Origin: Amphiscolops sp. MND2022
Taxonomy: Eukaryota
Assembly (NCBI GenBank): GCA_964187785.1
Contig: OZ076409.1
Coordinates: forward strand, 50,160,001-50,224,000
Direction: 5' to 3'
Length of the DNA stretch: 64,000 nt
Part shown: in pieces, positions 12,419 through 64,000 of the stretch
Position numbering within the stretch: position 1 is the stretch's first letter
Layout of the letters: each line of letters starts with the position of its first letter
Notes under the pieces: model-generated
What the model was told of the DNA's origin: nothing
What the model saw: only the letters and a program-made list of their open reading frames with translations
Database searches by the model: none
Program-made: the position numbers and the translations under genes

Positions 12419-15400
12419 ATGACGCCGTCTCTGTCTGCAAGTCCAAGAGTTTATGCAGAACTCACTAGTGTAGGACCGATTGCTCCGGCCCAAACTCCAA
12501 TCCCGCAGTATCCGCTTGTGCCAATGTAACCCCAATGTAAGGTGTTTACCGTCTGTTGATCAATTCCGTCGGTTATTCATCGCCAATCAATCACAATGTT
12601 ATTTCAGTATACACGCCTTGGCAACAGTCTTTGGGTTCTCTGTCGTTGGGGTGGTACGATGGTTATCTGCGCAATACAGTGAGAGAAGAACTTGCTAGTG
12701 CCAGTAAGTCAACTTTCATGTGTGATAGCGCTTTCAGCTGTCTCTGCTGTTGCATTCGTGTTGGTCGAATAGGTTTCATCGGTTGCCCATCGTGAATGTG
12801 GTGTCGATGTAGGGACGATGGATCTTGTTATTTTTAGTCCCGCGTGATGTGCAATCCGTTGGAAGACCTGCATTTCGACATTTTGTGTCTGTTGCCTGTG
12901 GACCGGAAGCGTCGGAGTCGTCACGTGATGTAGCGACACAGACGCGTCGCGAGTTTGTGGTGGAGTCGCCTTCCAGGGAGTCAGAGGACATCGAGGCTGT
13001 CTCTGAAGATGAGCAGCGGGAGGCAGATGCGATGATCCTTGATGATGAAGACATTGCCGAGTCATCTGGAAATGTTGCCGCTGTGGGTGAGGCTGGTACT
13101 TCCATCGTCAGTTCATCTGTACAGCCTGGTCCAGTTGTTGTCAGGCGGTCAGTTCGGGCAGGTAAACTAAACAACTTCATCGATCACGTGACTTGCAAGT
13201 TATGTGCTTTTTCGGAATACGTAGTGGACGTGTGTAGTTTTATTTTCAAGTGTGTTTTGAGGTCATTTCTCTATACTGTCTTTTCAGTTGTTTTAATTTT
13301 TCACTCGGTAGAAGTTTTCTTTTAGCTAATTTAACTAAAACGTCGTTTTTACATCAGTGGGGCTATTTTGGATGAATTCCATTTAGTCCTATGTTCAGTT
13401 AAGTAGTTTCATCGTTTGGCCATCTGGTTTTGTTTTAGTCGCTTTGAACAGCATTAGAGCGACCTGGTTTCAACACCCGTATGCCGGAATCTCGCTTGGC
13501 TTCGCTCGTGAGCATCGTTCATCTGATGCTTATGTGCGGTGTCTTTTATGTCGTCGCGATTTGAAGGTTGGCAGTCGCGGGATTTCAACCTATTTGGAAC
13601 ATTGTCGCGGCGTGATCCATCACAAGTTAGACTGTCTGGTGCGTCTGCGACGTGGATTGTTGCTGAGACGTCCAACTGGTGCTGTGATGGGCGTAGTAGA
13701 AGCGGCGCAGATGGTTGAAGAGTTACGTGGGCTGTCAGTGCCTGACGTGGAAGTGTGTCCTGCTTTGTCAGTGCAGGATGTGTTCCGGATTGAGTCAGGA
13801 GGCGGAAGTATCTGGAGTTCAACCGTGCAGGAAGTGCCCGATACAGAACGCAGTCTGAGGATGTTCCTGTGTGTCGTCGTGGACGCGCTTTATTGAGGTG
13901 GTGACGTGACGGGTCTCACCGATTTGTGGGATTCCCTGTCGACGACGGACGTGTCGTACGGAAGTCTTTTCGGTGGCGGATGCCGGAAGGAAGACGTAGT
14001 GGTAATTATATGTTTCATGAATTACCTGTATACATGTTATTACATGTTTGGAATTTCCTAATGGCCTTCATGCTGTGTCTATAGACGGGTAAATGGTCTA
14101 GGTTCTGAGGGGGGGTTTGTGTGCTATTGTCATGAGGCTGATTGGTGTTTTGGAATATGTTTTAACTTTTCCAGGCGCTTCTGATCTTCGGAGTGTGGCC
14201 TTATGTCGTCCGCACACTCGCAGCTTCGCTATGTGGTGAAAATCCTGTTGGACTATACCTGGAGTTGGATAGGAGTGTCGTTCGGTGCTCTGTCAGTGTG
14301 GCTGAGGCAGATGCAGTGCAGGGCGTGGTCTTGTTTGAGGTCGTAGCTACTGGCGACTGGGAGAGGCGAGTGTCTGAGTGGCTCGCGGACTACTGGAGTT
14401 GCGTCGGAGATGACTTTGTCCCAGTGGGGATCAGTTGTGGATGTCTCTCAACTGTTGGAGGGTTGTTAGAAGGAGATGGCGGCCGACGCGGGTTGCAGCT
14501 GAATCCGTTACAATTGAATGCCGTATTGCAGATTATCACAACCGCTGGATTGTCTGTGTTCGTCGGGCAGGACGTTCATGTGGTGATGAACTTTCTTCTG
14601 GGGAAGCTTCGCGACCGTTTGACGGATCCTGTGTTACGCAGTTGTCCTGCTTTGCTGCATGTTAGTGAGTTCATATGTTTGGTTTTGGTTCGGCAAGACT
14701 AATGGAGTTAGGAAGACGTGGTGGGCGTCATGGAAACTTGAAGTGAGGTGTGTAAGTAATGTGTTTTTTATTTCAGTGTGTCGTAGCCGGTGAAATCTCT
14801 AATTGGGAGATTGTCTCTGTCCTGGAGGATTTACATCATTCGTGGGACAGTCTTGTGGCGTTGATACAGCGTCTTGACCAGTTGGGAGGAAGTGCAGATC
14901 CCAATCGGATGGAGTTATTAATCTTGCAGGAATCAGGGCTAGCTTTGAAATTGCATGCTATGGGAGTGGTATACTTTATTGGTTAGATTTTGCTTTTGTT
15001 ACAATGTAATTACGTTTATACAGGTTTTATCGGTTATACGTCGTGTTATTTGAGGGTTCGGGGAAACTGTCTATCGTTATCATCGGAAAAATGTCAGGTG
15101 GCGTGGAAATACCACTTCGAGTCATTTGTTAGGTCTGTACTAGGTGAGGACGTTGTTATACAGTGTACATCGGATTAGCATCTGGTCATTGACGTGTTGT
15201 GTTCTAATCGTTTTGTTTTAGTACTCAAGAACATGAAACAGACTTTCAGTGGAAGTATGCATCGCGGATTGTATACGGTCAATGAATTGCTGAGTACCGT
15301 CCGAGAACTTTGTTTAATGGTTACTCAACCTGCGACAGTACCGGAATCATTTGAGATGCACCGCTGGGCCGGTTTTCAAGTAGCTGATCTACGGTTAAGT

Positions 15401-16180
15401 GCAGCGAGAGAGTCGCAGTTGTATCGGACTTTCGAAGCTCATCGCGCCCGTTATGCTTGTGGGGGGGAGTATCGAGCGGCAGTTACCGTTGTTGAAGAGT
15501 TCCTTATTACCATTGCTATGAACTTGCTACGGATGCCACAGATTTCTGATCAAGTCAATATGGCCCTAGCATGTTGGTGTCCTGATGTGCTGATGCGCGG
15601 AAGTGTCAATGAAATGCAGGAAACCATTGGCTACTTTCTTGAGGCTCTAGAGGGAAATGGAGTTATAGCTGAAGAAGAAAGGATTGCGATGTCTGACTCT
15701 TATGTACAATTTGTCAGAATAATTCCGAGATGACCATACGAGTGAGTATGCATCAGATCTCCATGATAGGGAGCTGTTGCAGTATGGTACTAACGATGCT
15801 AATTTGCGGCGGATGATGCAGCTGTCGTTGTGTTTGAGCGGCAGTGTAATTCAAAGTGTTCAGATGGTCAATATTTGCTTGCCAACTTTATCTTCATAGT
15901 CCCGAGAAGTATTTTCCTGACAATTCTCAGTTGGTGTGAGGCCCGAAATGTGCGGGGTTTACAGAGTATTCCCGATGGCTTAGTGATGGAAAGTAGCGAA
16001 GTGATTGGAAGAGCGGAAGATTTACGAAACGTCACGCTAGGCAGTTTGTGGGATGAAATCGGCAGAGAATCTCCTGATGGTTATCGTGGTGCAGTTTCGG
16101 AGCGGTTGGGTTTCACGTCGGATGGTGGAAGGGCTGCGAGTCCGGAAATTGGTGGAGCGCATCGATTTCGAAAACTATTT
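12419..16180 (+). pseudogene. Antisense spliced cargo gene: acidic N-terminus, BED/TTF-like zinc finger, degenerate hAT-transposase-like body
   Basis: Phase-matched GT-AG exons 12419-12536, 12608-12703, 12838-13161, 13439-14001, 14175-14660, 14777-14968, then probably 15024-15127 and 15222 onward; CLLCRRDLKVGSRGISTYLEHCRGVIHH; EFLITIAMNLLRMPQISDQVNMALACWCPDVL; a few stops and frameshifts. Confidence 0.8.
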
Positions 16181-16406
16181 ATTTCACACTTATTTATTCG
16201 TTGTTTTAACTTTGATTGAGTATGTACACGATTATTAGAGAGTGCGAAGCACTAACATTTGTGTTGGGATTTGGTTATAGTTGTTTGTTTTTATTTTTTT
16301 TCTGTACTTTGTGCGAAAGTTATTAGAGCTTTTCTGAATTGAACATTTAGTTAGAGTTTTCATGCGCTATAAGATAGAAGTTAGTTGGTAGGCGAGCCGA
16401 TGAGGG

Positions 16407-17705
16407 TGATGAGAGGGCGATGGAACATTTCCATCGTTCTTTCATCTGTAATTGCCTTTGTGTGTTATTTTAGTATGAAACCTTTGGATGATAAGTAAAC
16501 GATGAAACATTCTCATCGTTTTTCCATCGCGCGGCTCAGTTGCATGTATTCACAGTGTAGGTTACGAGACTTAGGTAGTTTTCATGTTAGGTTGTTACCA
16601 GTGATTAAGTGATGGGGGAACTCCATCTCTTATACATCGTGACTGTTGTTGTACTCGCGTGCGTGAAAGGTACATGTATTTTGAATTGCATGAGTAGCCT
16701 GAGTTTCATGTTAATTTTTCGGAACGATGTGTACGCGATGAAGTATTTTCATCGTGTAGGCATCGATACAGAGGCTTGAGTGGGTTTTGGCGTTGAAATA
16801 TGTAAAGGTGAGTGGAACGGTGGAGTATATCCATCATTCCATCATCGTTGACTGAGAATTGGTTCATTTGAGGTGGAAATTCTAGAAGCAATGAGTAACC
16901 GATGAAATATTTCCATCGGATTTCCTTCAGGGGGATTTTCGTGCGTTCTTCAGGAGTTGTGTGATACGGTGGAGGTTTTCCATCATTTTGTCATCGTGGC
17001 GATGAGTTTGTTAAGGTTGTTCGACAAACTGTGCGACGATGCGGGTAACGATGAAACATTTTCATCGTTTTTCCATCGTCGACTGATAACTAGTTAATTT
17101 TGCGTTGAGGAGTGGAAGCGATGAACTAACAATGAAAGATTTCCATCGTTTTTTCATCGGCGTGTGTCTGTTGGTGTGTTAGCCTTTGAATAGCAGTTGT
17201 ATCTTTTCGGTGTCCTCAATCAGGGCGGTAATGAACCGAATGTCAACCCAATGCAAAGCCTATGGTCTGTTGACGATTGAGGATTATTCTCTCTTGACTG
17301 AAGGTAATTGTAGAGAGAAGGGAGATGTAGAAGTGATGGAGAAACTCCATCTCTTTTACATCGTGCTGTTACAAGTTTTCAGTCAATTACGGTGGTTTGT
17401 CTAATTGCCACTTAGCTGTTGGTAATCAAGTTTTCCTCAACTGAGATTCGCTAATCAGATGTTGACTCGAGGCAAAGCCTACGAATTATCAACAGACAGG
17501 TCATGGAAACTCAGATTGTTTTGTGGCATGGTCAGAGAGAAGGTTGTGATGAGAAAACGATGGATGTTAACCATCGTTAAGCTCACTTAAATTTTATGTG
17601 TTTCTGGAAGCGATGTGGTGCCGATGGAAATGTTCCATCGGTTTTACATCGTTTCTGGTAATTTCACTGTTTCTTCACGATGGGGTGTTATTTAACCATC
17701 GTTTT
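16407..17705. promoter_or_regulatory. Array of ~13 spaced palindromic sites CGATG-N6-CGATG-N9-CATCG-N6-CATCG
   Basis: Exact geometry at 16725-16765 and 17611-17651, near-exact at 17119-17159; spacer sequences vary while pentamers and spacing are kept. Confidence 0.75.
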
Positions 17706-17744
17706 GATGTGAGGTTGTTGTTTACATGTTGTTTCTATCGTTTT

Positions 17745-19590
17745 CTACTGCAGAGTAGTGTTTGTTTTGCGTAGGGCGCTTCGAGCAGTTGAGATTTCAT
17801 GAATTAGGAAGTCTGAGTAGCGTTTCGGCTGAGGGTTTTCGCGTAGACTATATTTGCTTTTATTTGTCCTCGTTGCTATCAGATTTGGCGTTTCATCATC
17901 GTTCACCTGTTGGGGTGTCTCGGTGTTGGCAGGTTTTGTTGATTGTTCTGGCTGTTTCGTTGTATCTTGAATGATTTCCTGTGGACTTATCTCATCATTT
18001 TCGTTGAATTGCACCTGTGGGGCGTTTCGGGGCAGGTCGTCTATGATTATTTCCGGTTGTGGTGTTAACGACAGTCGGTTCGGTAGTCGATTCAGTGGTC
18101 TGTCGTGTTTGATTGCCTGCCGATAATCTGGCGATTTTAATCGAATGACTCTTTCAACTGGTGTTTTTTTTCATCAGTTTCTGGTTCGTCCGAATTGGAG
18201 TTTAATTTTGTTTGTGTGGGAATGTGGGAATCGAAAATATCAGAATCTTCCGTTTGGTCCGTGTCAGCGTATACTGGTTGGTTACTGATGTCCACGTCTT
18301 CTACAGGAAACTCCGGTTTGAAGATTTTCAGTCGTATCCGGTGAACGCATTGTGTTTTGAATGTTCCTACCTTTCGTATGATGTAGTTACTGTCGGACAG
18401 CACTTTCATCACTTTGAACGGACCTTTCCAGTGGAAGGTCTTGAACTCTTCTTTGCAACCCTGAGAGTCGTATTTGGGGTCAAGTAGGAAAACAAGATCG
18501 TTCACTTTGAGCGGTTGTGCTTTGGCTTTTCTGTCATAGTAAGCCTTGTACTTGTGGTATGCAGCTACTATGTTGTCTGTGTTGTTTCGGTAGATTTCGT
18601 TCATGCGGTTTAGGATCTGATTGATGTCTCCAAACTTGGTGTCGACTCGTCTTTCAGAGTTAGAGTATTTTAGGTCCAAAGCGTTGTATGGAGTGCGTCC
18701 GTGAAAGATTTCAGTTGGTGAACATTTCAGAGAAGTGTGGTACGTTGTGTTATGGGCCATGTTTGCTTTGTCGACATAGCGGTCCCATTGTGGTCTGTCT
18801 ACGTTTACATGTATTTTTAGGATCTTTTTTAGTTTTGCATGACTTCTCTCAACCATGCCTATGGTTTGTGCATGTTTTACAGTTGCATGGGAGATTTCAA
18901 TGCCAATGGCTTTGGTCAGTTGTTGGAATAGTTCGGCGGTGAACACGGACCCTTTGTCAGTCAGGATATGCGTTGGGACGTACGCGTGTTTGGCGAATAC
19001 CGACAGTAGAGCATTAACTACGGATGGTGTATCGGGTTTTCGTAGCGGTACAGCAAACAAATAACGCGAGAATACGTCTATTGCGGTCAGGATATGTGTG
19101 TATCCGTTTGATGCAGGCAGTGGTCCGACTATGTCAACTTCCATCAGATCAGTAGGGCCGTTACACGGGTCGTATATTTTCTGTTACGGTGGGCGGATCT
19201 TTCATTCGTTCGTCAATTTCGATCGCATGCAAGTTTCACAGCTTTCGAGTACTTTTTGTGTTTTCTCAGCAAGACTTGGAGAGTAGTAGCGTTTGCGTAG
19301 TTCATGTAACATCTTTTTAGAACCGAGGTGTCCCTGTACAGGGTTACTGTGTAAGGACCTGAATATTTCTAACATCACTTGATCAGGTACGACGATTTGT
19401 TTATGGGACTCAAGGCCAGTAAGGTGATAAAAGATACGGTACAGAACTCCGTTTACATTTTCAAGGCGTTTTCTGTTTTTGTAAAGTTTTTGGAAAAACG
19501 TTGACATCAAGTTCACAGGGTGGGTCAAAGTTGTTTCGTCAGACAAAATTTTAAACATAAGTTGAATGTCACTATTCGTTTTTTGGGTTA
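17745..19590 (-). pseudogene. Element 1 integrase (HHCC, DDE core, C-terminal tail), frameshifted
   Basis: HSNPVQGHLG..CETC; EVDIVGPLP; LTDKGSVF; GMVERSH; WKGPFKV; tail KYSLRENPQP. Confidence 0.93.
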
Positions 19591-19593
19591 AAA

Positions 19594-21360
19594 TTAGATC
19601 GACTCCCCTGGGGGGCTAACCTCCTTCGTTACCGGGTGTAGTAACGATGTTTTTACGATGAATCTAGTGTACTCTGGTAGGTGAGCGTCAGTCATTAGCT
19701 GGTAGATCTGAGGGGAGCTTGTGTGATCATTCTCAGAGGCCAGTGGTGTGGAGTGTACGTAGTTCATCGTTTTGTCATCGTCACAGGCTGTCGTCGCTAC
19801 GTCAACTGTTCTCATCGGTTTGCCATCGTCGATCGTCACTGTCTCAGAGTTGATCACTTTCATCGGTTTAGCATCGTGTGACCTCTTCTGTCTCAGTGAT
19901 TCGCTAGGAGGGAAGTATTCTGGTTCGTCTTCCTCCTGTTTTGGTGTCTTCGATGCGATTTCGATTTCTATGTGGTGTACTGGAATGGAATCAGTTAATT
20001 TTAGATGGACACGTTCTTCAGGTCGAATTTCCAACCTGGAAAAGTAATCCGCTGCGGGATTCTCTACACCTGGTACATGTGCTAAAATAAAATTAAACTG
20101 AAGCGTCTGGTCGCAAAAATTCCAAAGTGACGGTGGTATGTGTTTGGCCTGAAAGAAACGGGTGAGTGCTTTATTATCTGTCATTACAATTATAGGTTTC
20201 TTTCCCACAGAATGTGGCCGAACTCGTCGAACGCGAAGTGCATGGCTAAAAACTCTTTAGCGTACATTGTTAATGACATCTGTCCACCCTGAAATTTCTT
20301 AGAGCCAAAGGCAACTGGTGCGTACATCTTCAAGCTACCCGATTGTGTTTCAGAGTAGTCTTCTATTAAAAAAACATAACCTGCTGCATGTTCACTCGCG
20401 TCACACATGATTACTAATTGTTTATCCGGAAGGAGAAGTTTCAATGACAGCTTAGTAGCCTTGAGTAAACTTTCGTTAATGTCAAAAATTACATCTTTGT
20501 GACGTTGTTCTAATTTAAAGGTAGTGTCTTTTTTGATTAATTCGTGAAGAACTGCTGTTTTGTCTGCCAACCGGGGAATGTAGGACCTGTAAAAGTTGAC
20601 AAATCCTAAGTACCGTTGGAGAGCTTTAACTGAAGTGGGAGGTTTGAGTTTCTTCAAATAATCAGTTATTCGTTTTTCGATGGGTGCTATTCCAGTGCTA
20701 GAAATTGATTTGCCAAGGTATTCAATTTGTTGTTGACCGAATTCACATTTATTCATGCTGAGTTTTAAACCAGCTTTGGACAACTGCTGAAAAACAATTT
20801 CTAAATTTTCAATCAATTCATCAGGCGTATTTGCTGCGATGCCTATGTCGTCAACATACTGGGCACAGCGGTCCGCTTTGACCAAGGAGTCCAAATACTT
20901 GCGGACTACGCTGGTGAAGGATGAAAGGGAACGATTAAGACCTTGAGCTAGTCTAAGAAAAGCAAAGGTACGGGATCCAAAGTTAAAAGACAACAGTTGG
21001 ATTGACTGCTCATCGGCCATTGGAATGCAGTGGTAGGCCTGGGAACAATCAAGTTTACAGAAATATTTTTTCCCGGCCATGTGTTGAGCAGCGTCTGAAA
21101 CTGTTGTGACTGGGTGGTTGTGTTCTCCGTAATCGTTCTTGATCAGGTGGTTGATTCTCCGCAAGTCAACTAAAATCCTTAGTTTACCACTCGGTTTACG
21201 CTGTACAAATATCGGTGACGAGTATTTGCTGTAAGGGAGAGTAGTTATAATCCCGTACTCCTGCATTGACGCTAATTCTACAAGCAAGTCATCTTTTAGG
21301 TTAGTAGGGGTAGGGAGACTTTGGGAGTACACCGGTTCTTCATGCTGGGGTGTTAATTTT
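19594..21360 (-). pseudogene. Element 1 reverse transcriptase and RNase H
   Basis: SPIFVQRKPSGKLRILVDLR; KLDCSQAY; AQYVDDIGI; MCDASEHAAG; AKEFLA; MTDNKAL; ADYFSR; frameshift near 20200. Confidence 0.95.
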
Positions 21361-21362
21361 AC

Positions 21363-22901
21363 TTAAAAATCAGTGTTCATGCCGATGTCTAAACGATGTC
21401 TAGCAAAAATGGAGTTGTACTTTACCAGCAACTCCTCTACCTGAGCTTGTTGAGACGGAGAAAGAAGTGATTCCTCCCACTTGAAGTTCTGCAGGAACTT
21501 GACTCGTTCTTCATGGGAGCGGGTAGGATCGAGCTTCTCCAGTTCTCTGAGGGCCAGAATCTCATCGAAAATGCGTCTTTCGATCTTGTTGAGTTTATCT
21601 GGTTCACTGCACGTCTCTGGTGTCGGGTACCATTTTGTAGACTTCATCTCTGGGTTCACGAAGAGTTGATTGATCACTGCTGCTGCATCATCTGGGTGAT
21701 CGGTGATCAACTTCAGGTGTTCGACAGGCATCGGTGTGATGTTGGCTGCTTGATGGGGCGTTGGTATTCTGAAGTGTGCCAGGTTGGTGTTGGCTTCAAG
21801 TGTGTACACGTGCTCATTGGGGTTGGTGACCTGAATCATCGTTTTTCCATCGTCTAGGTCAACCACTGCTGGAGACACCAAGAGACACGTTTTGCGCATG
21901 AAAGCTGGAGTCCCTTCTACCGTGCCAGTTGTACGTGATATGTCCGCGTCACTGTGGACCTCAATCAGTACTTGATGGTGGGGAGGGATGGTAGTTCTGT
22001 TGCTGGAATACAAATTAATTAACCCAGTTTTGAACTTTTTATTCGTCTGTTGTCTCACTTGCATTGACATCATATGGTTAGGAAAGTGAACTAGATGATT
22101 TATGATGTCAAGGCTGACAGAATACTTTTCAAAAAATGACATTCCGATCAGGATCGTTCCCATTGTTGGGAGGACCAAAAAGACTTCTTCGAAGACTTTT
22201 CCAGCTATAAAGAAGCGTAAAAGGACTTGTTTTTGAATGGGGACTAAGTTGCCGTTAGCTATCTGAACTTTAAAGTTAGGGGGTGGTAATTCGTCTAGTA
22301 CTGCTTCGGGATGAGCAGCGGTGATTTTGCGTAATTCTGCTTCCGAAAGTGCGCTTTGCACTGCTCCTGTGTCTAAAAGACCTTGGTTTTCGTAGCTGTT
22401 AAACTGGAGGGGAACAAACAACATCTTATCCTTTTTATTTATATGCAATGTGGGACTAAGTACGTGAAATTGATTATTGGTTGCATGTTTTTTAGTTTTG
22501 GTACTACTATTTTTGTCGTTTGCATGTGTTTTACTACTAAGCCGTTTTGTCGATTTGTCATCGGTTGAGAGTCGGTCCGTCTGTTGTAGATGTGAGTACA
22601 TCTCTTTGGCATCGTGCGCAGGCCTCAATGCGTCGTTATGCCAGTTCATCGTTTGTTCATCGAGTGAGTTTTCCAATGGAGTGAATCTGTTGGTGGTTTT
22701 CATCGCCTTCATCGGTTGTTTATCGGGTTTCCGGTATCTTCGCAGATAGACTTCGTCTGCTTTGCTGGAATCACCAGAGGGCTGCCAAGACCTCTGATGA
22801 CGATTGCGTTGAGTTTGTTGAGTCGAGTGAGATTTGGAGTCAGAGTGTGGGTGCGCACTTTGATTGTTCGCGGAGTGAAATTGTGGCTTTACTGAAAATC
22901 C
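21363..22901 (-). pseudogene. Element 1 pol N-terminus: aspartic protease and a dUTPase-like beta region
   Basis: LLDTGAVQS, ILIGMSF; frame open from the gag overlap at 22901 to a premature stop at 21363. Confidence 0.9.
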
Positions 22902-23490
22902 TGTTCTCCTTCTGAGGATGGATCTTCATCGTTGTCTTGTATTTCCATTTGGTTCATGGGGCGCTGTTGTTGTTTTAATTCTCGTCGTCGCTCTTTGTTC
23001 TCTTGTTCATCTGTTCGTTGGTATGGTAGTTGTCCGTAGGGTGTGCTGGTTTGCTTTGGGATTCTTTTTCTGCAGTCCCAGGTTGAGTGGCCAGTATACC
23101 CGCAAATCTGGCATACCAGTTTTGGGTTGTATTTTGGCTTATCTTCATCTTGCCGCTTGGTAGGTTGTATGGCGTCTGGTTTGTTAATGCCATTAGCTTC
23201 ATCTCTTTGGCGTCCTCTGCATTCTTGTTTCGTGTGGCCTTGTTTACCACAGTAGAAGCATTTTCCATCGAATCGTTTAGTGTCTAATTTGGGCTGAGAT
23301 TGGTCGGAGCGTGTGAATTCTCGTTTGGATTTGTTATCAGACATCTGGTTAAATGGCTGATATGTCGCTGCAGGTTGTTGTAGGACGTTCTGATATTGGT
23401 ATTTTCTGAGTAAGTAGGTTTTGATTTCTTCGGGGCTGCTGTCTTCTTTGTTCGCCATTGTCAGCTCTTGTTGGATTTCGATTTCTGGCG
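22889..23490 (-). CDS. Element 1 Gag C-terminus with two CCHC knuckles (N-terminus deleted)
   Basis: CFYCGKQGHTKQEC and CQICGYTGHSTWDC. Confidence 0.9.
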
Positions 23491-23981
23491 TTCTGGTCAC
23501 GGTTAAACGATGTAATATGGATGAAACTTGTTAGATTGAGTTGAATTATTAGTTCTAGCACCAATAACATCGTTATTTCATCGTTTCGTGTATTTCAAAG
23601 AGAGGAGGCTTGTCGCGCTAGTTTCCTCTGAGGCGGGAGTTCCCTAGCGAGTGTCAATCTCGTCTATTCGTTATGGCGGTCCAGTTTGACCGAGTAACTA
23701 CTTTCTTTTCTCGTGACAAGCCATTAAATGTAGAATAGCATCATTTGCTTATTAGCACGGTCATGAATTGCGGACAAACGGAACTAGAATGCTCAGTATT
23801 AAATAAATAAATAGCTCAAATCTCACTGGGGAAATAGTGGGTTAGGTACAAGTAACGTAGGGTTGCTCACAACCATAGGTCTTATTATATGACATCATAT
23901 TGCCCATATCTAAAAACATAAGACATATTATTTACATTACAGATATTTAGTAGATTATATTTCCATCATGCTGGCATGACG
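23482..23981 (-). repeat. Truncated 5' LTR of element 1
   Basis: Matches 10834-11333, then joins directly into mid-gag. Confidence 0.9.
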
Positions 23982-26670: not shown

Positions 26671-26812
26671 GAACTGAGTTCAATCAAGAAGAGAAGAGAT
26701 GGCTCAACCAAAACGATTTGATATCAACAAAGTTGAAAACTTCCTGAAGAACTCTGCAGATAACGCGCAAACGCGGAGTTATTAGAATGCAGCTGTCGAG
26801 CACGGAAAGACC

Positions 26813-30616: not shown

Positions 30617-30729
30617 AATTCCAGATGAAATATCGCTAATATAAACGCGATTGGGTCCTTCAAAAGCACAAACAACAACAAGCGCGGAAAATGGGCCTCT
30701 GATAGGGCCGGCTGTATCATGGGACGAAA

Positions 30730-31046
30730 TGATGATGCAACTTCAATTTTTTGGAAAATGGAATAAAGAAGACGTACGACAACTGGGAGTCAATGATTTG
30801 GTTTGGATAGTGGATGAAAATGTGAAAAGAGCGCACTACAAGATGGATAGAGAGTTGGAAGTCTATCATGGAGGTGGTGGGCGAGTGAGATCAGCGCTGG
30901 TGAAAACTGAAGATGGAAAACTGAAACGACCAGTAGTGAAACTGGCACCCATGTTCTACGAAAGTGTTTTTCAGGAGAAAACCAGGGCCGGCAATGTTGG
31001 CGCCAGTCAATTGCGAGATCAGAAACTCAAGTTCAAACGTGACTGA
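30730..31046 (+). pseudogene. BEL integrase C-terminal domain remnant (DUF5641-like)
   Basis: LGVNDLVWIVDEN...GRVRSALVKTEDGKLKRPVVKLAP. Confidence 0.85.
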
Positions 31047-32428: not shown

Positions 32429-32628
32429 NNNNNNNNNNNNNNNNNNNNNNNNNNNNNNNNNNNNNNNNNNNNNNNNNNNNNNNNNNNNNNNNNNNNNNNN
32501 NNNNNNNNNNNNNNNNNNNNNNNNNNNNNNNNNNNNNNNNNNNNNNNNNNNNNNNNNNNNNNNNNNNNNNNNNNNNNNNNNNNNNNNNNNNNNNNNNNNN
32601 NNNNNNNNNNNNNNNNNNNNNNNNNNNN
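32429..32628. other. Assembly gap (200 N)
   Basis: Run of N. Confidence 1.
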
Positions 32629-41697: not shown

Positions 41698-42099
41698 CAA
41701 GGTACTATTTTTGGCCAAATTGTTGGTGTGTCAAAAAAGCCCCTTTTTGAGAAACACTTATTCAATCATCTCGATGTATCAACTCTGCATGTACATACCA
41801 CAAATGCTAACGCAATTTGACTCAGAGCATCCGATATCGTATCTGTTCCCGGACAATTAGCATCGCAGGTGGGGTGAGTCGACTCCTTCGAAGCGCAATT
41901 TTGCAATACAGTTTTACATGTGATTTTCTCATACAACCTTGAAAGATAACGTTTCGAAGTGGTGATTTTTATATTGTGTAAACATACCATCTGAGAGCAC
42001 CTTATCAACGTTCAATACCCACCCTGTGGGGTTTCTACATAGCAAATAACTTTCAAAAAACACTAACATTACATTTATTTATACTTCATAGATTGACTT

Positions 42100-51989: not shown

Positions 51990-52758
51990 TAATGTCACAA
52001 TTCCTGATTTAAAGTATTCTAAATTGTACAAGCGTTTCGAAGGCTACATTTTAGTTTCCAAATCGTGTGAAAAGACTTTTCATTCTTGTGCCTTTTTGAG
52101 CAAAAACAATTATCAAAAACGTTGTCTGAAGACATAACGCTTTCGTTTTTCATGCACAAATACTGGATTCTTTTCAGTTTCATACTACTTTTTATTAGAA
52201 TCTCCTTATCTGAGACCAAATAAGTTCAAAGAGTTTGGGCCCTGAAATCAAACACAAACGGTTAAGCACCGTTAAACATTTTTGTCAGAAGCTAAACGGG
52301 ACGAGGCCTCGGGTGTATAATTTTACTTTTCGCGCAATTAGTGACATGTGGCATACTTCTTATCATACAAAGACATTTCTTTGAAGCTATTTTAGATTGT
52401 CATTTCGTGTTTTTTGTGTAAAGTTCTACAGTTAGGTTTGAAAACTTTAGAAAAGTCACAGCGACATTTGTTTTTTTTCAAAATAATTTGAAAATGTCGT
52501 AACTCCGCACTTTTGGTTGTAATCTTTTCGGTTTGACCTTTTGATCATCTTCGACGGCTCATTTTCTGGTTTCCTATCATAAGCAGCGACTCCGCACAAA
52601 GCTGGCGTTTCCTTTTGCCTGAGAAAAATGCTTACTCTTTAATGACCAAGTTAGCATTTACTGTTCCAAATTGCAGAACAAAATCAGGGCCATCTTCGAA
52701 GATTTCATTACACGCACCAGGACAAAGTGTCAATTACAATGCACCAATTGGCTGGAAG

Positions 52759-53316
52759 TGTAAGGACTACTGTCCCTGGGGATTCTCTAGTCACAAGCAG
52801 ACCTTGAGTCCTTCTTCGTAATTTTAGTTTCAAACCCACTGTTCCTTTCAGTACTCCCCTGACTGTTAGGGGACAAACTTGCCTCCGTGTCACGATTTCC
52901 TAAGAATGACATTGAACTAACCATGTCCTGAAACTTTCGGCTATGGCATTGTTAATTGCCCTGTTTATTTGGCTGTGCATCATGGACATCCTTGAGTCCA
53001 TTTCTTGTGAAAGTCTCATGTTGAACTCACTAGTGAAAGTTTCCATTGTCTCCTGGAACCTATCCCTATGCATTAGGATTGTGTTCTCATGAACAAAATG
53101 TCTGAAATCATTTTCATGAGAGTCTTTTTCTCTAGGCTGTAAGTTAGACCCAGCGTCACCATGATCTTCCGAGTTTCCAATTACATTTGGAAGTTCCCGC
53201 TCAATAGCATTGGCAATGTCATTTCCAAGCATAACGTCCATATTTTCAAAATCGGACATCGTGCCCATTTCCCTTGATTTTCTAGCTTTCGCTTTCTGTT
53301 TTCTTGTGGAAGGCAT
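52759..53316 (-). pseudogene. LTR-encoded ORF of element 3 (MPSTRKQKAK...), probable Gag N-terminus
   Basis: One frameshift near 52935 and one stop, then reads ...RDSSPY to the TGTAAGG terminus at 52759. Confidence 0.55.
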
Positions 53317-54224
53317 AAGAGGCTATTGCAAGAGGTAAGAGATCAATTGTCTTAGGCTTGCAAACAAACAGTAACTAGTCTTTGATAGGCTGCAACAAAA
53401 GGGTATTAAAATTGTGTCCCCCGGTCCACGAATCCCGGGTATATATAGTATGAGATGCAAGACTATCGAGAAATTCGTGGTCATCATTCCAAAAATGGAT
53501 TATCCAATGCTAAAAATAGCTCTGTCTAATTTTAGAGTAGGTTACGTCAGAACTTCAAAGATGATGCTCGCCGACAATGCCGGGTAACATAACAAAATGA
53601 CAAGCAGAGAGAGTATTACATGTATGGAAAGATACTAGCAACATTACATGTATGTCAATTGTACAAGTCATGTATATGTAAAACTGGGTGCATTGGGAGT
53701 GTTACTAGGGGGGAAAGGACAGTAAGTCCGGTCCTTAGTTAAAAGGGTACGTTCCTGTAGTGTCTACGTTTATCATGGGTAACGATTTACTACACGTCAT
53801 AAGGGCCGTATTCAATTATCAGCACAACGCTTTTCATATTATTCTGATTTGGACCGGCGGTCCCATAGCCGTGATGCATTGCTTCAATTAGTTGAATGGC
53901 CGAGTATGGCTTTTATGTAAATGCACAAGTAGCACAGTATTAAAGATGCTCAACTCTCTTTGGTTGAAATTTACTTTGGATTCGATGTCCAAGGCGACAG
54001 GCAAGGAAACATTTGAACACGTTTCCTCTACCTGTACGCATTGGTGTCCAGTTACAAATTATATAAATTCAAATCGTATAATTAATTGTGAAATTAAGTG
54101 ACTGCATGTTTTTACCGTACAAATGAAATAAATTACACGAAAGAAAATCTTTCATAGCTCCGAATATTATTACCAAACTAATAGCAACAGTAAGAGAATA
54201 ATAAAACAGAAATGAGTTTTAGTT

Positions 54225-55190
54225 TTATATTGTCTTTTGGACAGCGTGTCTACTTTCCTTAATCGAGGGGGATCGTACCAGGGAGAGTGTTGTAGTGATT
54301 GTACGCAATTGAATACCATTTGCCATCGCAGGCGACCGCCTGCGACACACCCCCTGGCATGAGCAGAAACGCCCCGCCGACATCCCGTCTAGGAAGGCTC
54401 TCTTCCTCGTCTCCCTATCGGCCAGAGTCTCTCCAAGTACTGTTGTCTCATTCATATAATCGTTCACGGCTTCTGATTGAATCTGCGACACTGATTTTCC
54501 GCATACCACACAGTCCGAGTAGCTAACCAGCATAGATTCTTCTGACACAGCAATCCCTCTGAAGTGATTGGAGATGGAATCCATTGTGACAGTCTCATCA
54601 ACATATGAGCAGCTAGGCGCATTCACCCCGTAGTCCGGGCCTCTGTCAGCGACGAGAGGAGACAATAGGGTGTCTAACTGAGGCACTAGGTTGCGGCACA
54701 CACTCAGGGGGTGGTTGTTCCTTACCCTGTCGTCACAGGCCAATGGGCCATTTCCATTCCCTAGGTTAAAATACTTTTGGCTAAAGGCAGGGAACGGTGG
54801 TCGATTGGGCCTCGGCGTTGGGCACCTCTTCTGTGAATCAGTAGTTCCAGTTGCTGGTATCTGTATAGGATCGGCCAGCTGCCTTTCCACGCATTTTGCC
54901 ATTATTTGTATTTCTTCCGTTTCTGCATCCGATGGAGAGACCAGATCGCTCACTCAGCCAGAACTGATACAGTCCATTTGGTCTTTTTTGTCGCTATACA
55001 GATATATAATGGCTGGTTCCCCTTCGGACTGAGCCGCACCAATAAAATCCATGGGAGAGGTTTCTTGCAGATCCATGGTGTATCTCCTTTCGAAAATCTT
55101 TTTCGCAATTTTGAAAGAAGGTTTCAATATTTTTCTGAGCTTGTAAGGAGCAGCTGAACAGAGCAGTTGAAATCAGGAAAATGGTGACTT
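54225..55190 (-). CDS. Extra sense ORF of element 3 with a CxxC motif, function unknown
   Basis: 242-aa ORF 54225-54953 (SDCVVCGKSV...RKRAFLDGMSAG); the frame appears to extend upstream past a stop. Confidence 0.5.
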
Positions 55191-56430
55191 CATTCTCTGT
55201 CGACCCGCGGGATTTTTATCGAGTTTCGTCTTCCCTTTCCAGGGTTTTGTGCTTCGTTTTGTGCTCCGAATGATTTCTCAACAACAAAAACTTTCCTTTC
55301 TTTCTTTCAATTTTCTTTCAACATTCTTTCAACTAACCGCTTAGGCCACTTTGAAATTACCGACAGCGCATTGTTGACTCTCATAATTTCTACTAACACT
55401 CTTAGTTCTGAAGCATAGCGATAAGTATTTGTTAACACTCACACTCCACTGGAAAGTTTCAAGTGGATGAAGATATGGCTGAAGGCCACGCTGTCTCGTT
55501 CCTTCTGAGGTGGCCAATTAAAACGCAGAGAAATATCTTTATTCAGAAAATGGCTGTCCAAGGTCGGAAATCCATATAAGAAATAAAATAAGATGACCTT
55601 GAAAAATATAATAAAATGAAATAATAATGGTGAAATGCTAAAATAATCGTGATATTATAGAATAATTGTATGAAGTAAAAAAGTTTTCGAAATAAGTAAA
55701 ATAATGTAGATATCGCTGGTTGACTTTATCCACATATCCTTGTAAATCCAAAATAATTGTAAATTTGACACCAAACTGTATAGCCACGAACTCCAATTTT
55801 GACATCCTGTCACTTTGTCGTTTCACCATTTCAATTTTTTAATATTTGATTCTTTTCAGTTTACTTCCTCATTCGTATTATTTAGTATTTATTTGTCATC
55901 AGTATTATACGTTAGTTAGTCGTGGAGATAGTCTTCATTTGTATTTATTCAAAGTCTTCATTTATACAATCTCCTTGGGACATCCTGTCCATATATCCCT
56001 ACTTTTGTGGATTTTTCTGGGTTACTCCGGATAATCGACATTGAATCCCCATTTGGTAACTCTCAGCCACTTCCAGAATTCCCTTCTTTCTTAAGGACGT
56101 TTGCAGCCCTTTTCCAATTCTGCAGTAGCCAAGAGATTGTGCACCGGGTCATTCTGCCGATACTTTACTGCAATTTCGCCTTGATCTACAAGCAGCGATA
56201 TCACATCCTTTTCCAGCAATTTTCACCTCGGCTTCATCTGATAGCACATTTCCTAGCAGATTTCAAGGAGCTCGGTAGACTTCAAGTCTCTTCTTTCAAT
56301 TCCATTTCAATATTGAACTAATTTGAGGCTTGATCAGGGCTCTCATTTCACTCACGTACTTCCCGTCCAATAACCCAAGTGTTCACTTTGAGCTCGGAAT
56401 ATCTACTTCCGGAAGACTTTTAACGCGGTA

Positions 56431-59400
56431 ATGGATTCATATTCAGGAGGGTTCCCGCTTGATTTTGTTTCTCTCTGTCGTATGAACAGCCAATTGATGA
56501 AACTCATACACAACCAGCTGACATTTCTACTGTAGTGCAAATCTTGCCAGACGTTCACAACACCGATCATTCCCAAACAATCAGCAGAAAAGGGCTAGAG
56601 CAACCTCCAGGACTGCGTCCCTTGTCCAATCTGTCCTCCAACAGTGCAAATACAGAAGGAAGTCGCTCATCTTTTGCAGATCAGACATTACGTACATTGG
56701 CTGCTTTAGACCCCAGCTTAGACATCACCTTCTTGTTAGCGCCAAGCCAGTCTTCACAACACGGCGGGATCGAACTAGCCCTTGGCAAGGCCTCAGAGTC
56801 AGAGGCACTAACACTTGGCCAGCCTGAAGTCCAATACGTAAGTACGGAACAGCAGGGTAACTCCAGGCAAAATGAGCTCCTTCGACTGGAGAGAAGAGCA
56901 CAAGAAGAATTACTTTGAGACTGATGCAAGTGAAGTGGAGGATTTGTACGACAGCGCTGGCGCCGAAGGGCTGGCTGAGGGGCCTACCTCCAGTATCGTG
57001 AAGTCTGAGCTTTTTTCAGCTCCAGAAGAAGATCGAGAGACGGACGATCAGAATATCAGCAAGCCTGAAGGATCTCATCTACATAGCGAGGTCAAGCTCC
57101 CTGTCCAGCTTTCTGCCAATGGTCGGATCATGCTACGAAAGTACTTCACTGAGACAGCTCCTATTGAGCTCCCTAGAGGACATACCTTGGTTGCATCCAG
57201 CGAACCCCAGATTCACGCAGTGCTTAAGACCATTTCGGATGAGACAGTAAAATCTTCTTTACATGCCATGCGTTCTCTAGACCTGCAGGCGGTTTATGGG
57301 GAAAGGGTCAGACCGCCGGAAAATTCAGAAAAGCCTTGATCCGAGGAATCACTGCAGCTAGGGGTAAGTCGGCGAGCTCTGAAGTGGAATCGGAGAGTGA
57401 TAGCTACTCTACTGCTGGCTACACTAGCGGAGCATTCGCTACAGACGAGGAAAGAGGAGTAGCTTCTTTCAGTCAGGGAGCCGAGTCCGATACAAACAAT
57501 TCGACTGGAGGGACGCAAACTAAAGAGAGGGGGAACGTTCGTAATTCTGGGCACGCCACAGTCCCTAGCCCAGGTTACATACGAGCATTTGGGCAAGCTC
57601 GACAAGATAACTGGGACCACGGTCCACGCCGTTAGGGGGAAGGACGGACACATACTCTCCGCGTATGAGCTGGAAAAGGAGAAGCCCCTATTTGAGTCTG
57701 CTCGTCTCGTAGATATCGGCCCCCGTTTCCCATTCTATGATGAGTACATGGCGAGTGCAGGAGGACTGACTAACCCTGATTGGAAGAATCGTGCCTTATT
57801 TTGGTGACATCGTCATACTGATAGGACTTTGGGCCATCGTCATACTGAAAGGTGGGCAATTTCACCAATCATCAAGCCAATTGGATTACCTCGTGAAGAT
57901 CCAAATTTGCCGATATAGCTTGATCTCTGATCCAGCTCGGAATCAGTTGCTTGTGATAGCTCGACTCTTTTCTTTTCTTTCTACTGCACCCCTAGTTATG
58001 TGCATGTCAGGATGTACTTCTGACGTCCTCCAAACAGTCGAGCAGTTGAAGAAGGGGATCGAGTACCCTTTTCGATACCAGGTCCTTTCGATGCATAAAC
58101 TGATGCATAAACGAGAAGGGAGTGTATTCGGACGGATAGACCTTCACATACAACTCAATACCTACTGGCTTACTTAGCTAATAGCCTTGACGAACCCTGG
58201 ATGGCCAAAACTCATGAAGTCTCCGCAGAAAGATTCGTTTCCAGTGTTAGGGATAGGTTACATCTTGTACACCAGTTCCATAGCATTGTTCTTTCTAGGC
58301 CATCGTCAGTTGTAACTCGCGACTTCGGTCTATCCCCACCGAATGCTCGGAGATCATCACAAATTTGCAGCCCTCCTTGGACCACATTACTAGGATTGCG
58401 CCTAGTTACGAGATGCTAGGGATCAAAAACAAGGTTGTGGTTTGTTCCATTGACTAATCCAATCGTTGACTTGTACTTTATAGTCTCATGGTCTGAACAC
58501 TATTGGCAAGTCTTGTTTTCTTTTAGCCTCGGAGTCTGGAATGGCAGATCGTCAGTGATGACTTCTTCCCAATCAAGCTGGTTTTTTATGGGCGAGTCGT
58601 GTACGATTGTAAGTATCTCTTCTTTCATTATTTACGTTTGGAGTAAGCCGGTTTTCGCAATGTTCCAACTCTTCTAAAGGCTCGTAGGTCAAGATATCTT
58701 ATTGTCGAATCTTTGTTGTTTAGATAATGTCTGACTCGAAAGGAGCCTAGTGGGTCATCGAGATTCTGGATTCTTCACTTTTGGCCAGCGAAATACTTTC
58801 GTCCGAAAACTCTGCTACCGATCTCTTCTTCTGAAGCACATTCCCAAAGAGACGGATTGGACACAATTGCCCGTGCTTCGTACTGCCGAGCTTCGGCAGT
58901 TGTCATCCAGAGATTTTCTCACCAGACTGAGGTTAAAATTGGACCTTGATGCAGCAGCGAGGACCTAAAGTGAAGCGAGGCAACAGCGACCGAGATGGCC
59001 CAATTCCTTATTTGGCTGAATAAAAACACCAAGGAGAAGTTCATTGCCAAGGCAAGAGGTTACATCGTTTTCTTGCTTGAGATCTTCCTAAACCACATTA
59101 GCCTGAATGCCAACATCGTGAGGGGGATGGCTTGGTTCGATCCCAACATACTTTTGTGTATTCCATCGGAGCAAGCCACACTTTGGTTTGCAGCCCTATA
59201 TCAGAGTTTCAGTCTCCGAGGCTGGTTGGAGAGTTCTCCTGAGGACGACTGCAGTGACGAATGTCTGGAGTTTGCAGGGCATTTTCGTCAGACCTACACT
59301 TCCTCGAAGCATTCGCCAGATGAGTTTCTCGACATGGTGGATTTATTGTCTGGAATGTCTGAGCTCCGTAATTGGCCCCATCTCTTTCGATTGTTTCGGC

Positions 59401-59887
59401 TGAATTGAATGTGTCTCGTCTCGCTGAGAACACCCCACTGCTTCCTCCCATCCGATTCTACGATGTCGATTCACACATGCCAAAGTGTAAGCTGGCAGAT
59501 GTTCTGTTACCAGCACAATCTTTTCTGGCCCGGGTTCCCGAATCCATTCCTATTTGCACGAAGGATGAGTCGTTGGCCAAATTCCGCGAATTAGAAGATC
59601 AAATCAATACAGGCAACGTAGCAGGCAATCCTTGGAGTCATGTCAACATATTTGGAAAAGCAGGCTTCTATACAATTCTCTGCCAAGTGCATAAGTCATT
59701 CACACAGAAGCCCAAGTCAGCGTTTTCCAGTCGTTCCTTCTCTGGTTCCAATTCGCCCAGTACCAGTGCACGACGTGAAGGATCCCCCGGAAAAGGAAAA
59801 CGGAAAGTTGCCTTTGAATCAAGAGAGCCTTCTAAGGAGGGTAGTGTCCCACAAAAGCCTGAACAGTCTACTGCATCTAAATCTTAA
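56431..59887 (+). pseudogene. Antisense cargo gene of element 3, degenerate hAT-transposase-like
   Basis: Acidic/Ser-rich N-terminus; VMCMSGC; FIAKARGYIVFLLEIFLNHISLNANIVRGMAWFDPNILL...DCSDECLEF...WPHLFRLFRL; GT-AG intron 58609-58723; internal deletions. Confidence 0.72.
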
Positions 59888-60142
59888 ATGTACATAGTGT
59901 ACATTTGTTGTCCCAAACTTCTGTCCATTTGTGACTCTGTTCTTTGTATTTATTGTGTTTATCTTGTTTTGATGTTATTTTGTATTGTCTTTGGTTGTTT
60001 TTGTGGGCCTTGTATTGTACGCCACTAATTCGCTTTGTCGACACATATTTATTCAAAAAAAATGCAGTCAGAATATTCCCAGGTAAAAATACATGTCCTT
60101 TGAGGACAGATAGCAAAAATGACCTGTAATTTGATATTCTGA

Positions 60143-63100
60143 CTAGTATCTGTATTCGTCAGTAAAGTTGGGGTTGGGGTTAGGTCGAAGAACATATTTC
60201 CCTCCTCTAGGGCTCGAATTTTCCTCAGGTTTTTCATTTTCCGACATTGCGGGCGCGGTAAAATCTGCGCCTCCATTTGAAGCAATTCCCGTGTTTTCTA
60301 AACCATTAGTGACGTCCTTTTTATTTTCTGTCCCACTAGGCAATTCATTCAGTGGGGACGTCTCGTCTCGGCTGCTGGCCGGTCTCGGCCTTATTTCATC
60401 TTCGGTGACGTCACTTTCATTCCTTTCTTCGCTGCTGCGTTCATCTTCATTCGTGTTGGAGCGGTCGTATTCGGTGACCTAATTGTCCACTCCGCCGGTG
60501 GCGGCGTCGCTTGGCAGACGCGTGGCCGTGTCCGATCAATTATCTTTTCCGGTTCCAAAAAACTCACAGTCGAAGTGTTCTTCCCATGAAATAGTATACA
60601 AGTCGTCTTGCGGTATTACTATCTCCTCATCAGACTGTAGTTTTTCACCAGAGTAATTATCCTGTAAAGGCGTATTAGATACCATTTTTTTCAGCCTAAT
60701 CCTTTGTAATATTTGCGTTTTATTGGTGTTTACCCGACGCACAATATAAATGTGATTTGACAAGACTTTTTGAATAACAAAAGGGCCAATCCAGTGATAG
60801 TGTCTGAATGGAATTTCCAATGCTTGTAGGTCAGCTTTAGGTTGTAGGATGAAACAATACTCCCCCTCCTTGAGCAGAGCAGCTTTGGCCTTCCGGTCAT
60901 GATAGTCCTTGTGTTTCAAGTACGACTGCATGATGTTTTTCTTTGTTTGATCGATGAGGATTTGTGTTCTCTGTTGTACTTCTTCCGCAAATTCTGTAGT
61001 TGGCAAAAAGTTTTTATCAGGATTATTTTCTAATCTTTGGTCAAGGACATTGTGGGGAATGCGTCCATGAGATACTATGCTTGGTTCACATCCAATACTT
61101 GAGTGGTATGTAGTATAATAATTGAGTACAGCTAATGGCAGGTATCTGTGCCATTGGCGTCGATATTCCCTTGAGGCCATTTTCAAATTTGTTTTGAGAA
61201 AGGCGTGCGTCCTTTCCAATTTGCCAATTGTTCGCGGGTGTTTTGTGGTAGAGCATTTGAGTGTTATACCCAAGATTTGTGTAATTTCCGCTACAATCGT
61301 TGAGGTAAATGCGGACCCTTTGTCCGTGATGAGGGTTGTTGGCAGGTATGAATGCTTTGTCATGATATCAATTAGCACCTTGGCTACATTTGTGTCTGTT
61401 GCCTCAATTAGCGGGTATGCAAAAAAAGTAGCTTGAAAAAACATCAATCGCCGTTATCATCGTCTGGTATCCCCCACTGGTAGATAAATTTGATATAACA
61501 TCATTTTGCATGACATCTTCTGGACCATTCCAGCAAGTTAAGTAATTCCGGTGTTAATATTATATTATTTGGGACACGTTTATCCTTGGCACATATTTGC
61601 AACCTTCTACCCATTTTTGACGTGTTTTGCTAGCCCCTGTAGCTTTATTTTTTGCAAAATTCCTGCAGCATTTTTGATATACCAGGGTGTTTGTGTGCCG
61701 TGCCATGTAGGGCAAGTAACAATTCTATCACCAAGTGTTTAGGAAGTAATATTTGATGATATTGGACTTGACCACTTTCATCATAATATTGTCTCGTGAT
61801 TACTTCGTCCTTGAGGACTTTGCGTTCGAAGTTGTTCAAGTAGTGCTTGTACCGTATGTCCTGTTGGAGAATTTCCTCAGAACACTCTTCATTCTGGATT
61901 TTCGCTTTAAGTTGGAGTAATCTTGGGTTTCTAGCCTGCTCCATCAGTATCTGATTAGTTCGTCGTAACTTTTTGGTGAAATTGGTTATTTCATCCACAT
62001 TATTTTCGGATATTGCATCAATTTGTATTATAGTCTCGTCGACTTTATGCCCTTCTTTGGACAATCGGTTGCGCTCCCAAGTTTGTTCTTCTGTCTCATC
62101 TCCTTCTTCAGTGAAGAATACTTGTTCTTCCTCGGACTCACCGGCCGATTGAACATTAACTTCAATAGGTCTGTATTCAACGTCCTCTCATATTTTCAGG
62201 ATGAATTTCTCATTTGGATCCATTTTCATACGAGACAAGTAGTCCGCCGCTGTGTTGTTTTTCCCTGCAGTGTGAGCTATGATAAACTTGAACTGAATCA
62301 CATAGCCACATGCATTCCAGAGTGGCGGTGGTATAACTTTTGTCTGGAAGAACCGCGTAACTGATTTGTTATCTGTGAGGATGATTATCGGTTTCGGAGA
62401 TCCCCATCTTGAGTTGTCATCTTGAGTTGTGAAGGAGATAAGTCTTTGATCCATTAGCTATGGGAGCATTGGACTTTTTGGCGGAAGTAAACTTTTGGTT
62501 TGGGTCGTCTTCGGTTAGAATGGCGTAACCGGCTGCCGTAAAGCTGGCATCTGACATCAGGACCAGTTGTTTGTTCGGCAATGGTTGCTTCAAGGCTAGT
62601 TGGCTACACCTGTCGAGATCCCGTTAGTTTCGTTGAATTGTTGTACTAATTCCGTGGTCACTAGGAAATTATCGTCCTTTTTAAGGAGTTGAAAAAACGG
62701 TACTTGTTTTTCGGATAAACTTGGGCTATAATTTCTGAAGTAATTGAGAAAACCAAGATAACGTTACAAGGCCTTCTTGGACTTCGGGAATTTTGTCTTT
62801 TCCAAGAAAATAGTAATTCTTTTTTGAGGCTTAACACCTTCTGGGGTGATGGTTCGTCCCAAAAAATCAATTTCGGTAGCGCCGAAGTGGCACTTGTGCA
62901 TCGTTAGTTTCAATCCAGCTTCTCTGATTCTTTCGAAGGTCGCCCTCAAGTTTTTAATAAGTTGGTCGGCGTCGCTGACTGCAATGCTGATTTCGTCGAC
63001 GTATTGGGCGCATTGATCCGCTTTGATGATTCGGTCAAGGTATTCCCTCATGAAACTGGAAAAGGCCGATAAGTCTCTAATAAGTCCCTGAGCCAATCGT

Positions 63101-64000
63101 CTATAGGCGAACGTCCTGCTTGCAAAGTTAAATGCTAGCATTTCTTTGGACCTCTGGTCCGCCATCCGAAGACAGTGATAGGCCTGGGAACAGTCTAGAT
63201 AGCAGAAGAGTTTCTTCCCTGCCATGTGTTGTGCGGCATCTGTCAGAGTACTGACTGGGTGGTTATTATTAATATAATCATCTGAGATGAAATTATTAGG
63301 TTTCCTCAGGTCGGTCAGTAGTCTGAGTTTGCCATTGGGTGTTTTCTGCGCGAATATGGGGCTGGCGTGTTTAAAAAATGGCAGGGTTGTAATAATGCCA
63401 TATTTGTGGAGTGATGCCAGCTCAACCAATATGTCCTCTTCTAAGTTCACTGGTGCTGGTAAACTTTGGCTGTAGGCTGGGGAATCATCCTTAGGGTTAA
63501 TTTGACTGTAAACTCTTCATTTATGCCAATGTTGAATCTGTGGCGTGCGAATATATCATGGAACTCTACCAAAAGTGATTCAATCCTTTTGCTCTCATGC
63601 TGTTGTAGCATCGAGTCCTTGCAGTCAAAGTTGCTGAAGATCTTGCGGCGAGATTCTTCGTCATCATTCGGGTTCAGTTTTTCCGCTTCTTGCAAGTTGC
63701 GTAATTCTCTGAGTATTCATTGCTGTATGGGTGTACGAGACGTTTCGTCTCCTGGTATTTCGGGTGTTGGGAACCAGTATTGTTCGTATTGGTCATTGTT
63801 CCGATTCGCTTTCAGGAGGCTGCTAATGTTTTGGATAGCATCCTCTTCATTCTCTTTTATTAAATGCCATGTAGACACTGGGTCTATTGGTCTGACATGT
63901 TTCATTTGTTCGAGAGTCAACACTGAGAAGTTTGCTATATGCAATCATTTTTTGAGCTTGTAAGGTTGATCAGTGAAATTGTTGACGCGTATTCCTATGG
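60143..64000 (-). pseudogene. Element 3 pol (RT, RNase H, integrase), disrupted
   Basis: AQYVDE (YVDD mutated); MSDASFTAAG; LTDNKSV; HGTAHKHPG; ITDKGSAF; GKLERTH; tail KYVLRPNPNP. Confidence 0.93.

Follow-up and report, generated by a model that had tools for sequence, protein, structure and literature searches.

Antisense open reading frames (ORFs) are known from plant Gypsy retrotransposons of the Retand/Tat group (Grande gene23, RIRE2 and TRP28/PF04195), where their function is unknown (PMC11963269, PMC7264820). The plant ORFs are described as having no similarity to other transposable elements (TEs), and an origin from nested TEs was not supported (PMC7264820). In this study, we analysed a window of 64,000 nucleotides from Amphiscolops sp. 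MND2022 (assembly GCA_964187785.1, 1.07 Gb; contig OZ076409.1, positions 50,160,001 to 50,224,000, or G000:C1:50160001-50224000 in our numbering). Within it, a Gypsy element that begins at position 52759 (element 3) carries an antisense gene, here called the cargo, between pol and the 3' long terminal repeat (LTR). A divergent counterpart lies in a second Gypsy element (element 1); the groups represented by elements 1 and 3 are called clades A and B. The antisense gene is widespread in a large group of Gypsy elements in this genome. As in Retand/Tat elements, a conserved antisense ORF with predicted DNA-binding capacity is located between pol and the 3' LTR, and repeat arrays are found nearby in the plant elements and in clade A alike. 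Unlike the plant ORFs, as far as the available text of their accounts goes, the cargo is a gene of five predicted exons that encodes a zinc finger and has a hAT-like architecture. The word "intron" is absent from the main text of PMC11963269 and PMC7264820, and PF04195, the plant TRP28 domain, had no match in the Pfam scans of the cargo. Exchange of the gene as a cassette and its sharing with a DNA transposon, both found here, have no mention in the available parts of these accounts.

Accessory genes of other TEs provide further parallels, again as described in the available text of each source. VANC of VANDAL (Mutator) elements is a fast-evolving anti-silencing protein (PMC13547354), and the cargo is likewise a fast-evolving TE-encoded accessory beside conserved core enzymes. 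VANC, however, is MAIN-related and belongs to plant DNA transposons, whereas our survey found no cassette-specific DNA motif, and the role of the cargo is a proposed one. TET/JBP genes are common to fungal DNA transposon superfamilies including EnSpm and were proposed to counter silencing (PMC12730594). They resemble the cargo in that one accessory gene has moved between transposon lineages that are not related, but they encode enzymes of DNA transposons, whereas the cargo is likely non-catalytic and crosses classes I and II. The ORF3s of bdelloid rotifer LTR elements are shared with Penelope-like elements (PMC5408684) and, like the cargo, are accessory ORFs of animal LTR elements found in unrelated element types. 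They comprise env, GDSL esterase and DEDDy exonuclease genes among retroelements, with no spliced antisense transposase derivative. Searches of open-access text, which does not include Repbase entries, listed no animal Gypsy element described as carrying a spliced antisense cassette of transposase-like type, and no such cassette shared with CACTA.

A sequence-only reading of the window had aligned the two cargos by eye and proposed an old shared module. All six cargo peptides that it quoted are present in the window translations. Taken alone, the two decayed copies in the window show no significant similarity: tblastn gave no match at E<0.01, the best six-frame BLASTP E value was 0.16 (BLOSUM62) or 0.032 (BLOSUM45), and the Smith-Waterman score was reached by 58 of 1000 shuffles. 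Open-frame relatives of the two cargos, however, align with a BLASTP E value of 2e-06 (45/230 identical) in the register seen by eye (WCPDVL/FDPNVL, LRRMMQLS/LHRLFQLS). For the three large exons of these relatives, 0, 8 and 0 of 1000 shuffles reached the real Smith-Waterman score, and profile-profile alignment with hhalign gave colinear matches (E values of 0.007, 0.0005 and 0.0005) with probabilities of only 6-32%. Clade-B profiles matched clade-A frames at E values of about 1e-05 for two exons, but the finger exon reached only 0.1. In 20 sequences from both clades, the cysteines and histidines of the finger (CxxC-x15-H-x5-H) are invariant. The homology among open-frame relatives and the deep clades common to the reverse transcriptase (RT) and cargo trees support the view that the cargos are homologous and old, and argue against two chance insertions.

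The position of the gene is constant in the Gypsy loci sampled. Sixty-one cargo loci were picked by hand to cover the subfamilies; 59 of them are convergent and antisense to a Gypsy pol, and place and orientation are the same in 59/59 Gypsy loci. Genome searches with six different last-exon queries each gave at least 100-129 matches among the matches listed, with thousands more candidates unscored. A profile search of public data found 640 cargo-related clusters at 50% identity, and none of the 20 clusters checked was named. Among the scored candidates from this genome, two of the four public query proteins found matches of no more than <=31% and <=40% identity, so that they are probably from other genomes. 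Word-indexed searches found no longer last-exon relatives, and the finger search found unnamed ENA relatives only (best 120 of 143 matches). The cargo shows the sequence signature of purifying selection: the large exons had median ratios of nonsynonymous to synonymous divergence (dN/dS; pairs with dS 0.2-1.5) of 0.05, 0.19 and 0.23, and the RT one of 0.06.

The cargo is predicted to be a spliced gene of five exons, spanning 56431-59887 (+) in element 3. Exon 1 (56431..57841, +) encodes a long acidic low-complexity region and has several frameshifts and stops. A basic KRRR-type stretch precedes the zinc finger. The suspicion that the finger had been deleted from element 3 was borne out: a C2H2/BED-like finger is present in relatives, and here it has gone with about 100 codons deleted at ~57579. 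A second deletion at ~57880 took away intron 1, flanking coding sequence and the 5' part of exon 2; the remnant of this exon (57887..58219, +) contains MSGC and is a candidate degenerate RNase-H core. Exon 3 (58299..58433, +; 135 nt, phase 0, bounded by AG and GT) and exon 4 (58527..58608, +; 82 nt, phase 1, donor GTAAGT) are followed by exon 5 (58724..59887, +), an all-helical domain of ~390 aa in relatives that is interrupted by frameshifts and stops here. Splice sites were surveyed by pattern parsing in the 26 loci whose three large exons are all open, 2-3 loci per site being unparsed. A GT was present at, or one codon past, the homologous exon end in every parsed donor (23 first, 24 second), and an AG just upstream of exon 2 in all 24 parsed loci. 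Two small conserved exons lie between the large ones: among 26 clade-B loci, one of 135-141 nt is present in 24, and one of 82 nt, followed by a GT donor, in 19. Some cargo introns were evidently gained or lost over time, because exons 3 and 4 are fused in clade A and exon 4 is continuous with exon 5 in two clade-B loci.

The trees comprised 33 elements in which both the RT and the last exon are open (528 pairs), with a careful search for the RT and a quick search for the cargo. Between clades A and B, RT identity was 56-69%, against 82-100% within a clade; the corresponding values for the last exon were 8-19% and 26-100%. The deep clades are the same in both trees, which separate A from B and recover two additional groups inside B with good support. 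The proposal of a vertically inherited module agrees with these deep clades, but strict co-inheritance is not supported: in 47/528 pairs the RT is >=97% identical while the last cargo exon is <=75% identical. In the pairs L064/L070, L092/L110 and L073/L077, RT dS is 0.06, 0.02 and 0.01, while cargo dS is saturated or near 2-3. L064/L070, the sole pair with both flanks, is 94-99% identical in LTR, sense ORF and pol and differs only in the ~4.7-kb cassette between the flanks (38-61% identity in forced alignment). Cargos of 55% identity occur even beside identical RT and 99-100% identical integrase. These comparisons show that old cassettes have been exchanged among young, near-identical Gypsy backbones.

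The same gene is present in both Gypsy and CACTA-type elements. The second carrier, of 35,303 bp (G000:C2:29298732-29334034; loci L136, L128, L124, L106 and L129), has the features of CACTA/EnSpm (CMC) transposons: 37-bp perfect terminal inverted repeats (TIRs) that start with CCCCAG, with termini CCC rather than CACTA, a 2-bp target-site duplication (TSD), a Tnp2-type transposase (PF06869 at 36.8 bits against a cut-off of 33.1; PF02992 and PF13960 weak) and long subterminal repeats. It also has other unassigned ORFs. A second copy near C2:56.41-56.44 Mb is 99.6% identical, so that this giant element appears recently active, and L107 has 2.5 kb in common with its right end (94%). The cargos of L106 and L107 have splice sites as in Gypsy and are 32-51% identical to clade B and 12-20% to clade A. 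The CACTA-borne cargo falls within clade B, with differing placements there (bootstrap 50-96), so that transfer in either direction is possible. The claim that the module defines a Gypsy lineage was not supported, as the cassette is swapped between backbones and resides in a DNA transposon as well. Its presence in both classes hints at a shared helper protein. Block exchange between fixed flanks and occurrence in two unrelated element classes also speak for a self-serving passenger, a transposase-derived cassette spreading by recombination or residual activity and selected for its own transmission. This explanation seems improbable to us, because, in the alignments, the acidic residues have not been retained at the canonical catalytic positions, place and orientation do not vary among the Gypsy loci, and the cargo tree is congruent with the RT tree at depth. 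Two frames of the carrier also give weak SET-domain matches, and one of these frames contains a GPLAFVNASC motif; this accessory-laden transposon merits separate study.

The antisense gene is probably a disabled DNA-transposon enzyme, and we consider derivation from a hAT-type transposase likely. As in hAT transposases such as Hermes, the finger is followed by a putative RNase-H core and then by a candidate helical insertion. Language-model features (ESM) placed the finger at 0.88 to the zf-C2H2_12 and zf-BED clusters, Pfam giving only weak other C2H2 families, and the predicted last-exon structure weakly matched Hermes 361-609 (PDB 8edg). Several hAT features were not found. The D-D-E triad of the RNase-H core is not kept (by-eye equivalent positions are E and G/C/T), nor are the motifs CxxH, TRW and ERxFS. 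PF05699, PF14291 and PF04937 were above cut-off in 0/70 last-exon and 0/25 exon-2 sequences, and Pfam gave nothing above cut-off on any part of the cargo. Sequence profiles of the PDB gave no cargo match, and Foldseek with re-alignment gave no clear structural match. Self-comparisons of element 3 revealed no hAT-type ends (TIRs, 8-bp TSD) around the gene, no dedicated search for cassette ends having been made. When cargo profiles were compared with the hAT ORFs, mostly Ac-like, that a PF05699 search had found at 24 loci of this genome, no signal rose above shuffles. The alternative that the gene is a captured host zinc-finger protein or another helical-insertion DDE relative, with a chance helical resemblance to Hermes, is unlikely though worth keeping in view; the two weak leads, language-model features and structure alignment, both name hAT, and the motif order is colinear over five exons. 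A first AlphaFold model, from 8 sequences, was poor (predicted local distance difference test score 51) and was not used. The hAT dimerisation domain has at least 150 matches in the genome, of which several lie in open frames of 600-700 aa, and hAT transposons are thus abundant in it. ZBED and DAYSLEEPER are domesticated hAT genes; the cargo, by comparison, would be retained by other mobile elements and not by the host.

Overall, we slightly favour the explanation that an antisense-acquired, disabled hAT-like gene acts as an exchangeable accessory factor. An ancestral Gypsy element would have gained a DNA-transposon gene, likely of hAT type, in antisense between pol and the 3' LTR. Antisense orientation would let an intron-bearing gene survive retrotransposition: because the gene is antisense, its introns would stay in the genomic RNA and be copied with the element, while the protein would be expressed from a spliced transcript of the opposite strand. 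Since the finger and the helical insertion-like domain appear to be kept and the canonical DDE residues are not, the product is most likely a non-catalytic nuclear DNA-binding accessory factor. It would help its carrier, for example by binding the element and countering host silencing, or by regulating LTR transcription, a function that we propose tentatively, at somewhat less than even chance. A factor that targets integration or assists integrase as a chromatin or DNA tether would also suit the invariant finger, the preceding basic stretch and the transposase-like ancestry. We give this little credence, because 55%-identical cargos beside identical RT and near-identical integrase speak against tight co-evolution with pol, and the CACTA carrier has its own transposase. 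Under the accessory-factor explanation, many old cassette variants would coexist, and recombination, probably through template switching in reverse transcription, would swap them between gag-pol backbones that are nearly identical. Their diversity would persist through conflict, whether with the host or between elements, and the gene would have crossed at least once between Gypsy and the giant CACTA-type transposon. The motif AACGATG, which contains a CpG, is a plausible candidate binding site. Clade A elements have 20-37 copies each against 2-4 expected, an approximately 10-fold enrichment throughout the element, pol included (e.g. window 10100-24000). A strict VANC-like specificity is not supported, because AACGATG stays constant while clade A cargos diverge, clade B lacks it, and the motif survey found no cassette-specific DNA motif. 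The fuller proposal, in which a cassette from a disarmed hAT transposase encodes a DNA-binding factor for counter-defence or competition, with ancient alleles kept by an arms race, reshuffled between identical Gypsy backbones and traded across classes I and II as an animal counterpart of VANC of different origin, is possible but doubtful as a whole.

Element 3 is an old, degraded copy. This minus-strand Gypsy element extends from 52759 to window-equivalent 67910 (window plus the next 10 kb of the contig), flanked by the TSD GGAAG (52754..52758, and 67911-67915 just beyond the far LTR). Its 3' LTR (52759..54347, -; 1.59 kb, TG...CA) is 88.5% identical to the partner at 66312-67910, whereas LTR identity reaches 99.5% in relatives. 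A PBS-like (primer binding site) sequence, (T/C)GGTGACAGGAG, follows the 5' LTR and a purine tract precedes the 3' LTR, both read directly. The broken pol (60143..64000, -) has the order RT-RNase H-integrase, with RVT_1 above cut-off (Pfam, E=4e-19) upstream of a weak rve, and protease and gag follow beyond the window. Two direct TG...CA LTRs with a TSD within the 4-6 bp range, a gag zinc knuckle and the order protease-RT-RNase H-integrase (from element 3 pol and the gag/pol of relatives) identify it as Ty3/Gypsy. The order and orientation of pol (-), convergent cargo (+), sense ORF (-) and LTR are as claimed. The supposed run-off ORF of the LTR is in fact the N-terminus of gag (52784..53316, -; 55-63% identity in tblastn with a relative's gag), which begins within the LTR in both clades. 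In relatives, this gag start is followed by pol (~1700 aa), the antisense gene and a sense ORF of ~295 aa entering the 3' LTR, with an acidic N-terminus and CxxC (e.g. L030:2857-3741) and no significant Pfam family. The frameshifted copy in element 3 (54225..55076, -) runs through the polypurine tract into U3. This ORF is kept within element 3's clade (31-85% identity) and moves with the backbone, not with the cassette. It was thought to be common to both elements, but no homologue was detected among the relatives of element 1, where the best match (E=0.018) was a fragment read in the cargo's reverse frame. Its termination inside the LTR is a Nef-like position.

The clade A cargo of element 1 (12813..16219, +) has an acidic region, a zinc-finger exon at ~13439-14001, exons at 14175-14660 and 14777-14968 (exons 3+4) and a last exon from 15222. 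A spacer with dispersed AACGATG/CATCGTT palindromic motifs, confined to clade A (16408..17651), is followed along the window by pol, a gag remnant and an internally deleted 5' LTR (17745..23980, -), of which 23478-23980 is 98% identical to 10830-11332. This 5' LTR is fused straight to mid-gag, the 3' part of the LTR, the PBS and 5' gag being deleted; the other LTR reaches left to about 10140. In two clade A copies, other elements with unrelated long ORFs are nested in or replace parts (L048:12093-15424, L056:737-3525). Element 2 (25395-31939) is a BEL/Pao-type LTR element with 945-bp LTRs (96.8% identical), gag matches to DUF1759 and DUF5641 and a 24-bp tandem array (26392-26696). At only 6.5 kb, with no RT-like frame seen, it is probably non-autonomous. 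Together with the predicted spliceosomal introns, this BEL/Pao-type neighbour is suggestive of an animal host. A diverged remnant like its LTR (64%) lies at 41709-42052, and an assembly gap (200 bases, N run) at 32429-32628.

The module is genuine, under selection and widespread, and its history is more dynamic than the sequence-only reading proposed. Conserved antisense ORFs of Gypsy elements are a standing question, mainly in plants, and the cargo points to a disabled DNA transposase as a candidate source. Many young copies combine one backbone with different cassettes and so provide natural near-isogenic comparisons, in which function is testable by cassette type via silencing, expression and copy number. 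If the proposed origin and transfer are true, one class of mobile element domesticates the enzyme of another, and a gene moves between retrotransposons and giant DNA transposons within one genome.
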